64,000 nt of DNA from Candidatus Omnitrophota bacterium (GTDB lineage Bacteria > Omnitrophota > Omnitrophia > Omnitrophales > Aquincolibacteriaceae), in assembly GCA_022705945.1 (NCBI GenBank), contig JAKJDL010000001.1:53047-117046 (forward strand), in the 5' to 3' direction. How positions within the stretch are numbered: the stretch's first letter is position 1; every line of letters starts with the position of its first letter. Below the pieces are notes generated by a model. The model worked only from the letters and a program-made list of their open reading frames with translations, did no database searches and had not been told where the DNA came from. This document shows positions 466 to 1,368 of this stretch, one piece after another. The position numbers and the translations under genes were made by a program.

Positions 466-515
466 CGCTTTTTACCCACTCCAACACCCGGGCCTAAGTC
501 CCGGTGTTGGAGTGG
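466..515. repeat. Flanking repeat copy A (cgctttttaccc-actccaacacccgggcctaagtcccggtgttggagtggg) with an internal hairpin caacacccggg/cccggtgttg
   Basis: Read directly. It is a near-exact copy of 1319-1368, with 3-4 mismatches near the 5' part. It lies just downstream of the minus-strand transposase ORF. Confidence 0.8.
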
Positions 516-609
516 GGGCAGCAGACGGTTAGAAGCGTTTTTATGTGTCACTTTTCTGTTTTCCAACCCCTCGGAAACACAGAAGTTGAAAATACTTGCG
601 GAACCGCCT

Positions 610-1257
610 CTAATCCATGAGGTGGGATTTGATGATTTGAAGACTCCGCTGATAATCTGCCCGGTCCTCAACAAATTTTCTGTATTGGGCCGGTGTCATC
701 GGGACCAGCTTCTTGAAATCACAGATCGGGTTTTTTCCGTTCGCACCGCAATATTCATGATGGGACGAAAATTCCCAATCATCCGCGTACGCGACAAGGC
801 CTGCCGAGGTCGGATTGAGATGGATATACCGTGTCATATGCCAAAGGTCCTCGTCTGTCCCGATATGACGGGCACCAAACCTTCCGACCCATAGCGGTCC
901 TTTCCGTTTGGATTTTTTGTTCAGATAGGACGCGTAACTTCCCTGAATGAGCCGCATGTAGTCCTCAACACCATTCTCGGCGGTTTGTATGACCAAAAGA
1001 TGGATGTGTGTCGGCATAAGGCAGTACGCAATCACCCGGACACGCTCCGAACCGTGCAAAACAGGGTCATCCGCTCCCAGAACCCGCTTAAGTGATATAG
1101 AGTAGCTGTGCCTGGCAACGGAATCGCGATAGAACCGGATCACCTCTCTCATCCGAACGTATTCCTCGGAATAGCGGAAGATCTCGAACCCTTCGATGCT
1201 TTTGTTGTAAACGTGATAAACGCCGCCGGTGTAGAATCTCTCTTTTCGAAAACCCAT
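610..1257 (-). CDS. HuH-Y1 transposase, IS200/IS605 TnpA-like / REP-associated tyrosine transposase (RAYT)
   Basis: Translation MGFRKERFYTGGVYHVYNKS...CLMPTHIHLLV...MTRYIHLNPTSAGLV carries the HuH motif and the Y-x3-NP Tyr motif typical of the Y1 transposase family (PF01797). An AAGGGG Shine-Dalgarno sequence sits upstream of the start at 1257. At 215 aa it is longer than a canonical IS200 TnpA. Confidence 0.75.
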   Translation of the reverse strand: MGFRKERFYTGGVYHVYNKSIEGFEIFRYSEEYVRMREVIRFYRDSVARHSYSISLKRVLGADDPVLHGSERVRVIAYCLMPTHIHLLVIQTAENGVEDYMRLIQGSYASYLNKKSKRKGPLWVGRFGARHIGTDEDLWHMTRYIHLNPTSAGLVAYADDWEFSSHHEYCGANGKNPICDFKKLVPMTPAQYRKFVEDRADYQRSLQIIKSHLMD

Positions 1258-1318
1258 TTGAAATCCCCTTTCTACATCTGAACTCTACCATAATTTGTAG
1301 AATATGCAATATATATAT

Positions 1319-1368
1319 CGCTTTTTACCATTTCAACACCCGGGCCTAAGTCCCGGTGTTGGAGTGGG
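1319..1368. repeat. Flanking repeat copy B (cgctttttacca-tttcaacacccgggcctaagtcccggtgttggagtggg)
   Basis: Read directly. It has the same orientation as copy A and lies upstream of the transposase start codon. Confidence 0.8.

Follow-up and report, generated by a model that had tools for sequence, protein, structure and literature searches.

A Y1 HuH endonuclease gene bracketed by a lineage-specific hairpin repeat in a Candidatus Omnitrophota genome: a probable REPtron/TIRtron-like unit

Almost all work on repetitive extragenic palindromes (REPs) and the REP-associated tyrosine transposases (RAYTs) has, to our knowledge, dealt with Proteobacteria and a few further phyla. Systems of the REP/RAYT type have already been described in some detail (Nunvar 2010; Bertels & Rainey 2011; Ton-Hoang 2012; Messing 2012; Di Nocera 2013 (PMC3733652); Bertels 2017 (PMC5581495); Quentin 2018 (PMC6006769)). 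Here we describe a locus in a 64,000-nucleotide stretch of DNA from a Candidatus Omnitrophota bacterium (GenBank assembly GCA_022705945.1, contig JAKJDL010000001.1, positions 53,047 to 117,046 of the forward strand; hereafter the window), in which a gene for a Y1 HuH protein (the Y1 gene) lies between two copies, W1 and W2, of a 42-nucleotide (nt) hairpin. The locus is probably a REPtron/TIRtron-like unit, consisting of a domesticated class-2 Y1 HuH endonuclease and a cognate palindrome that it is predicted to recognise and occasionally to copy. We favour this reading because of the class of the protein, the bracketing of the gene throughout its family, the presence of solo copies of the hairpin, and the existence of divergent paralogues with hairpins of their own.

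The Y1 proteins closest to this one have been sorted by motif into class 1, the IS200 transposases, with the catalytic motif Y-x3-Q, and class 2, which is TnpA-REP-like and has Y-x3-NP; IS200 TnpA has a median length of 152 amino acids (aa), and IS200 copies within a genome are ~99% identical (Quentin et al. 2018, PMC6006769 Table 1). Two class-2 systems are the most useful for comparison. One is the REPtron, represented by Escherichia coli TnpA-REP (also RayT or YafM; structure 4ER8) and its REPs and bacterial interspersed mosaic elements (REP/BIME), which falls in class 2 (PMC6006769) and in the RAYT groups of PMC5581495. The other is subclass 2.1, also Bertels Group 1 or the TIRYT-TIRtron (PMC3733652), which has the motif set NH[VYF]H / W[EQ] / Y[IV]HLNP (PMC6006769 Table 1).

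The Y1 gene occupies positions 610..1257 on the minus strand and encodes, from an ATG start, an open reading frame (ORF) of 215 aa. On that strand the sequence reads an HuH motif at 1000-1008 (codons CAC ATC CAT, H84-I-H86, in the context MPTHIHLLV) and a catalytic tyrosine motif of the Y-x3-NP form, Y144-I-H-L-N-P, at 811-828, with the Y144 codon at 826-828. Both had been recognised in the initial annotation, and both are sound: Pfam Y1_Tnp (PF01797) matches the protein with an E-value of 9.5e-9 and 35.9 bits, above its 23-bit cut-off, and T83, H84 and H86, together with R143, Y144, H146, L147, N148 and P149, are invariant in an alignment of 39 homologues (A1). The whole 215-225-aa architecture is kept in this alignment, including H15, T83-H84-x-H86, Y108, G-P-L-W, R143-Y144-x-H-L-N-P, W161, S164 and the tail. 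The threonine before the HuH motif stands where N or D is usual, and the conserved C-terminal tail, FVEDRxDYQRxLxxIK, is family-specific, ~50 aa long, gives two helices in an AlphaFold model, and has no DnaA_C or helix-turn-helix (HTH) match in Pfam. The model (AF2, built from the 39 homologues) has a pLDDT of 93 and a pTM of 0.88. The protein was correctly noted to be ~60 aa longer than IS200 TnpA; by alignment and model, the excess consists of the tail and of a variable insertion that separates the first strand/helix from the HuH strand.

The best NCBIfam match of the protein is REP_Tyr_transpos (NF047646), with 67.5 bits, and all 39 aligned members match this as their sole NCBIfam model, the best E-value being 2e-19, which is still sub-threshold. 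The IS200 model (NF033573) was unmatched in 39 of the 39 aligned members, and with the protein of the window it gave 13.8 bits and did not reach its cut-off of 55. By sequence, the closest PDB entry is 4ER8 (E 8e-6), in which E. coli TnpA-REP is bound to a REP hairpin; the alignment spans both the Tyr motif and the W-x-F-S-S extension, and the same structure is the top Foldseek match of the AF2 model (4er8_A, E 9e-9, TM-score 0.71 on the target), with the ISDra2, IS608 and IS200 transposases next at ~1e-5 to 1e-4. Because the Y-x3-NP motif and the best NCBIfam, PDB and fold matches all agree, the protein is assigned to the RAYT / class-2 TnpA-Y1 group and not to the IS200 transposases.

Within class 2 the closest subclass is 2.1, as judged by motif comparison and not by a tree: it is the sole listed subclass with Y[IV]HLNP (PMC6006769 Table 1), and the protein resembles it as well in its WE motif, in the SS motif of the tail, in a length near 238 aa and in the conservation of a C-terminal domain. 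The HuH motif of the protein is THIH, however, and not NH[VYF]H, and by the same kind of comparison its invariant threonine fits none of the 12 subclasses listed in PMC6006769.

The two hairpins lie in the same orientation on either side of the gene. W1, downstream, spans 466..516 on the plus strand and comprises the flank CGCTTTTTA (466-474) and the 42-nt hairpin (475-516), whose 17-nt arms (475-491 and 500-516) are 94% complementary, with one bulge or mismatch and the loop CCTAAGT. W2, upstream of the gene at 1319..1368 (plus), has the same 5' flank and the same hairpin, except that the outer 5' arm (1328-1336) carries three substitutions. Each copy is an imperfect palindrome, CCCACTCCAACACC-C-GGG CCTAAGT CCCGGTGTTGGAGTGGG, with a foot that reads (T-run)-CCCACTCC...GGAGTGGG. 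A 35-nt core at 482-516 is identical to 1334-1368, with zero matches expected from 100 dinucleotide shuffles, and a repeat search extends the pair to a 52-nt direct repeat with 88% identity (470-521 / 1322-1373). W1 and W2 are identical in three asymmetric features, namely the non-palindromic loop, the bulged C and the 5' flank, and the copies are therefore truly direct. When folded as single-stranded DNA (ssDNA), both form hairpins, W1 (466-520) at -20.1 kcal/mol (z = -5.6) and W2 (1319-1373) at -11.3 kcal/mol (z = -2.6), the latter being weaker because of the three substitutions in one arm. The initial annotation, which described two near-identical ~50-nt palindromic repeats in direct orientation and proposed folding them as ssDNA, thus holds on these points. 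The similarity stops ~10-25 nt outside the hairpin, so the repeats do not belong to a larger duplication. Scans of the window with Rfam (at gathering thresholds) and for tRNA genes returned nothing. A 15-nt near-repeat links the 5' coding end of the gene for a PlsC-like acyltransferase (384-398, ACCCCTCGGGAACAC) with the spacer that runs from the Y1 stop codon to W1 (566-580, ACCCCTCGGAAACAC); it was considered as a target duplication and dropped, its score being barely above the shuffle maximum and the match probably due to chance.

Hairpin, Y1 gene and hairpin on one strand within ~0.9 kb is the layout of an IS200 element, and the unit might accordingly be an autonomous insertion sequence (IS) of the IS200/IS605 type (such as IS200, IS608 or ISDra2) that excises and inserts as ssDNA, with the same-strand hairpins as its left and right subterminal structures. 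In such elements, as in IS608 and ISDra2, the left- and right-end hairpins are on the same strand. Beyond the layout, the window unit shares with these elements the Y1 HuH fold and a presumed ssDNA hairpin substrate; the three IS transposases are significant fold matches (E ~1e-5), and decayed IS200 material is present in the source genome. We nonetheless regard this explanation, and with it the earlier proposal of a novel IS200 relative, as very unlikely. IS200/IS605 elements have Y-x3-Q in a core-only protein of ~150 aa, are multicopy and near-identical, and do not disseminate solo hairpins, whereas the protein here has Y-x3-NP and falls far below the IS200 cut-off. The gene is also found in one copy at one conserved locus: it has a single locus in the 64-kb window, and it recurs with the same neighbours on six further contigs of other assemblies, so that seven assemblies show it in one and the same context. 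The annotation of 'Candidatus Omnitrophica bacterium ADurb.Bin277' includes an identical Y1 protein, and a relative with 72% identity (L105) shares the context too. Among 72,556 plasmids searched, there is no relative covering at least 80% of the protein. The 5' flank is common to both ends of the unit, and in half of the family the copies are inverted (see below), neither of which suits a mechanism with a left end and a right end on one strand. Because of the shared locus in seven assemblies, the context of L105, the divergence of paralogues described below and the lack of a plasmid relative, we consider it likely that the gene is single-copy and vertically inherited, and not an IS.

The Y1 gene belongs to a large family. 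A word-indexed search gave 362 matches, at least 586 relatives were confirmed among 600 candidate stretches listed from one-genome-per-species contigs, and a library of 50%-identity representatives contained 18,908 matching proteins at E <= 1e-3, 4,307 at 1e-10 and 94 at 1e-30; the best 150 library matches are mostly of 200-230 aa and align over nearly their full length. The hosts named include Omnitrophota, Berkelbacteria, Saccharibacteria and other Patescibacteria, WS2, Elusimicrobia, WOR-3, Nitrospirota, Thermodesulfobacteria, and metagenome-assembled genomes (MAGs) labelled Planctomycetes. Thermodesulfobacterium, Berkelbacteria and Omnitrophica do not occur in the supplements of PMC6006769, and among the top-ranked full-text literature matches there was no co-mention of 'RAYT' with Omnitrophota, Patescibacteria and the like.

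A lineage-specific hairpin on either side of the gene is the rule in this family. The four homologues that were looked at first, with 64%, 51%, 50% and 47% identity, are all bracketed by a hairpin repeat of their own, one copy lying 25-140 nt upstream of the start codon and the other at the stop codon or up to ~40 nt past it. Over the genome loci of the family, the same sequence is present on both sides of the gene in 65 of the 77 with enough flank, above the 99th percentile of a cross-locus null; the source genome was not among the best 80 loci listed. The sequence varies by lineage, with CACCTCGTAGGTG-type stems and 3-nt loops, ACACCCGGTGT, or GCCTCCCGCCCCTCCGGGAGGGGCGGGAGGC, and the foot is often ACC...GGT. 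Between the four closest species (the window, L105, L106 and L011), a small set of related sequences, compensatory changes preserve the stem: 87% of cells pair, compared with 54-57% when the partners are slid by one column; 6 of the 19 stem pairs have double compensatory changes, and the covariation score was reached by none of 500 shuffles.

Seven MAGs carry two members of the family each, and these paralogues are only 42-57% identical, which matches the pattern of class 2 and contrasts with the ~99% of IS200 copies (PMC6006769), a further point against an IS. Wherever hairpins could be called for both paralogues of a MAG, they differ.

Direct orientation of the two copies, which had been thought atypical, is not: of the 47 loci with an informative loop, 22 have direct and 25 have inverted flanking copies. 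The 64%-identical relative L106 is an example of the second kind, its downstream copy reading, but for one mismatch, as the reverse complement of the upstream copy, and its stem imperfections are inverted too. At L025, L037, L040, L057, L078, L099 and others, the stems are identical and the 3-nt loop is reverse-complemented (CGT vs ACG), and the short 3' flanks at these loci look alike in direct register. Plausibly, the palindromes are homogenised in either register, or the protein may use either strand.

In 14 of 69 family loci, additional cognate hairpins lie at a distance of over 320 nt from the gene, within the fetched flanks of up to 5 kb per side. In ten loci that were inspected they occur mostly in short intergenic gaps, singly or as adjacent doublets (L085, L086, L062, L044). 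In the Omnitrophota locus L085 the cognate hairpin is present, as a single or a doublet, in five consecutive intergenic gaps of a co-directional cluster (209-247, 3382-3402, 4159-4179, 4871-4891 and 8120-8158), each time just 5' of a purine-rich tract resembling a Shine-Dalgarno (SD) sequence.

The hairpin of the window also occurs away from its gene. The initial annotation had suggested searching the genome for further copies of the core, and in the source MAG (Ca. Omnitrophica ADurb.Bin277) identical solo hairpins were found in two intergenic regions unrelated to the locus, which favours a REP/RAYT-like domesticated element, one of the two options it had offered. A scan of metagenome contigs with the stem pattern recovered the identical 42 nt in two new contexts (L102 and L104), where the adjoining proteins are recorded as ADurb.Bin277 OQA56040.1 and OQA56403.1; OQA56402.1, also of ADurb.Bin277, shares a 90%-identity cluster with the other L104 neighbour. 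Two further candidate contigs, L101 and L103, were rejected as unrelated high-GC sequence with a chance match to the stem. The scan gave 5 contigs and missed known two-copy contigs such as L003, and the collection is therefore incomplete and the copy count a lower bound. In the MAG itself (GCA_002069035.1), one solo copy lies at L107 9941-9982 (MWBP01000026.1), 18 nt upstream of the start codon of a PF02594 gene and just 5' of a purine-rich SD-like tract, and the other at L115 9852-9893 (MWBP01000037.1), in the opposite orientation, 108 nt upstream of a xanthine/uracil-permease gene. Both are identical to W1, such that three of the four copies agree over all 42 nt; a T4-5 run lies 1-3 nt 5' of the foot in all four, and TG follows the foot on its 3' side in three. 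Neither solo copy has a gene remnant in the sequence seen, which speaks against an IS.

No empty sites were found for the solo hairpins, since each contig spanning those sites either has the hairpin or breaks within it. Five independent metagenome or read-archive assemblies (L108, L109, L112, L114 and L118) start at position 1 within the loop of the 42-nt hairpin, as assemblies typically do when they break at a repeated palindrome. The intergenic region with the L115 solo hairpin (9354-10001) also contains a decayed C-terminus of an IS200-type TnpA (GIWSKGYFVSTVGIEERVIQKYVEMQ, with Y-x3-Q), which sits between the small hairpins CCCCACCCTCACGGGTGGGG (9701-9720) and CCACGCCCTTACGGGCGTGG (9492-9511). 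It follows that the source genome has, or once had, true IS200 elements.

The positions of several copies raise the question of whether the hairpins are instead host regulatory structures, namely terminators, mRNA stabilisers or promoter/operator elements, with the Y1 protein having some other role. W2 overlaps a hexamer resembling a -35 box: a consensus scan, which gave 3 sites in the region against 1.6 expected, places a promoter-like site of the Y1 gene, TTGAAA-17 nt-TATATT, at 1308-1336 on the minus strand, and its putative -35 TTGAAA arises from exactly those substitutions that weaken the arm of W2. The sequence suggests that W2 may have been recruited into the promoter of the Y1 gene. 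The L107 copy, close to a start codon and an SD-like tract, and the preference of the extra family copies for short intergenic gaps would also suit a regulatory function. At L106 (1127-1200) the downstream hairpin is followed by TTGTTTTTT, a T-run, and could double there as an intrinsic terminator of the Y1 gene. The hairpins of the window were themselves considered as intrinsic terminators and rejected, as the stem is followed by a T-run on neither strand and a terminator scan made no call. Generic terminators would, moreover, be unlikely to appear as the same lineage-specific sequence on both sides of one gene family, as in the 65 of 77 loci from several phyla, nor would they differ between paralogues of one genome. 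We therefore judge a purely regulatory origin to be improbable; a regulatory side-role is compatible with a REPtron/TIRtron-like unit, as it is for the classical REPs.

For such a unit, we infer binding, cleavage chemistry, an ssDNA substrate, dissemination by the Y1 protein and autoregulation as follows. By analogy with E. coli TnpA-REP and IS608 TnpA, the Y1 protein would recognise the 42-nt repeat when it is extruded as an ssDNA hairpin, for example on the lagging-strand template. It would then cleave near the hairpin through Y144, with a metal bound by H84 and H86, forming a 5'-phosphotyrosine link, and, again by analogy, it could rejoin the cleaved strands. The hairpin would occasionally be copied or moved without the gene to new intergenic sites, which would explain the identical solo copies elsewhere in the genome, while the Y1 gene itself would not transpose. 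Given the overlap of W2 with the putative -35 box, the protein may regulate its own expression.

It is also conceivable that this activity is past, with the Y1 gene now an inactive relic in decay and its hairpins, flanking and solo alike, the fossils. The low number of hairpin copies documented and the degraded arm of W2 are what such decay would produce. The ORF is intact, though, has all the invariant catalytic residues and is identical in seven assemblies; the family is conserved over its full length across hundreds of 50%-identity clusters; and the identity of three of the four hairpins suggests recent copying or active homogenisation. We regard a relic as very unlikely.

Compared with the REPtron, the domesticated unit proposed here shares the Y1 HuH core, Y-x3-NP and W-x-F-S-S; a low gene copy number, with divergent paralogues that each have their own repeat family; and a gene that lies between its own palindromic repeats, of which further copies occur in extragenic DNA. 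It differs in that its HuH motif is preceded by an invariant Thr (PTHIH) and not by N/D, in that the 215-aa protein has the extra conserved two-helix tail, and in that the flanking copies are direct in the window and free in their orientation across the family. The repeats differ as well: the hairpin has CCCAC...GTGGG after a T-run in place of the GT[AG]G foot, and four copies are documented, as a lower bound, instead of tens to hundreds.

The TIRtron is closer in copy number. Flanking 16-mers of Bertels Group 1 are moderately repeated, at ~12 per replicon, to which the low number here is comparable, and some TIR families are self-complementary and moderately abundant. Subclass 2.1, in contrast, is reported to lack REP-like structures near the gene, whereas a strong hairpin flanks most of the loci of the present family that could be scored (65/77); this hairpin-bearing clade, closest by motif to subclass 2.1, clearly has REP-like structures. 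The TIRYT consensus GGGGWSAS, searched for at positions 1-2000 of the window, is absent near the Y1 gene, and the tail lacks the DnaA_C/HTH match.

Several observations weigh against a REPtron/TIRtron-like unit. The score of 67.5 bits with REP_Tyr_transpos falls short of the 80-bit equivalog cut-off, and the protein is by this measure a relative of that family and not an equivalog. There is no third copy of the hairpin in the 64-kb window, at up to 9 substitutions in the 35-nt core. The canonical 5' GT[AG]G foot of REPs is absent, with no GTAG or GTGG 5' of the stem on either strand (subclasses 2.6 and 3 likewise lack it). At least four copies are present in the source genome, two of them those flanking the Y1 gene, and this is far under classical REP densities. 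In principle, contigs of the MAG GCA_002069035.1 could have been mixed by binning. Finally, the proposed link between the Y1 protein and the 42-nt hairpin is drawn from DNA and protein sequence.

More tentatively, the clade may constitute a large unclassified subclass of class-2 Y1 endonucleases, a suggestion we put forward with somewhat less than even confidence. Such a subclass would be defined by PTHxH, a length of ~215-225 aa, the two-helix tail, orientation flipping and a repeat type of its own, namely ACC...GGT palindromes that lack a foot and GT[AG]G and often have loops of 3 nt. It would represent a REP/RAYT-type system of Omnitrophota and of the candidate phyla radiation (CPR)/Patescibacteria, for which we found no earlier account, with a low copy number in very small genomes, and persistently linked to a giant gene in Omnitrophota.

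The giant gene of the window adjoins the Y1 gene, at 1517-8125 on the minus strand, and encodes a 2202-aa ORF with no Pfam domain. The initial annotation had placed the unit beside this gene in what looked like an accessory stretch; the adjacency stands and is conserved in relatives, whereas the accessory character does not, as the other neighbours are housekeeping genes (a UvrD-type helicase, lipoate-protein ligase, GcvP1/P2, GcvT and the PlsC-like acyltransferase). Homologues of the N-terminal part of the giant ORF adjoin the Y1 gene in L011 (2387-7066), L106 (1324-2508) and L016 (2645-3178), where the Y1 gene lies upstream of the giant gene, on the other side than in the window. L105 keeps the gene order of the window, and its upstream ORF weakly matches the C-terminal region of the giant gene. 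The linkage of the two genes is old, though the order is permuted, and argues for vertical inheritance.

The result mainly extends a known type of system, REP/RAYT, to new lineages. One practical consequence, a modest one, is that such palindromes break metagenome assemblies. The clade is widespread, and many of the lineages in which it occurs have genomes that are small and streamlined. A domesticated HuH nuclease that maintains only a few cognate hairpins in so small a genome is a minimal case in which to consider the role of RAYTs in their hosts, and the co-variation of protein and hairpin across the family provides many natural pairs of protein-DNA specificity.

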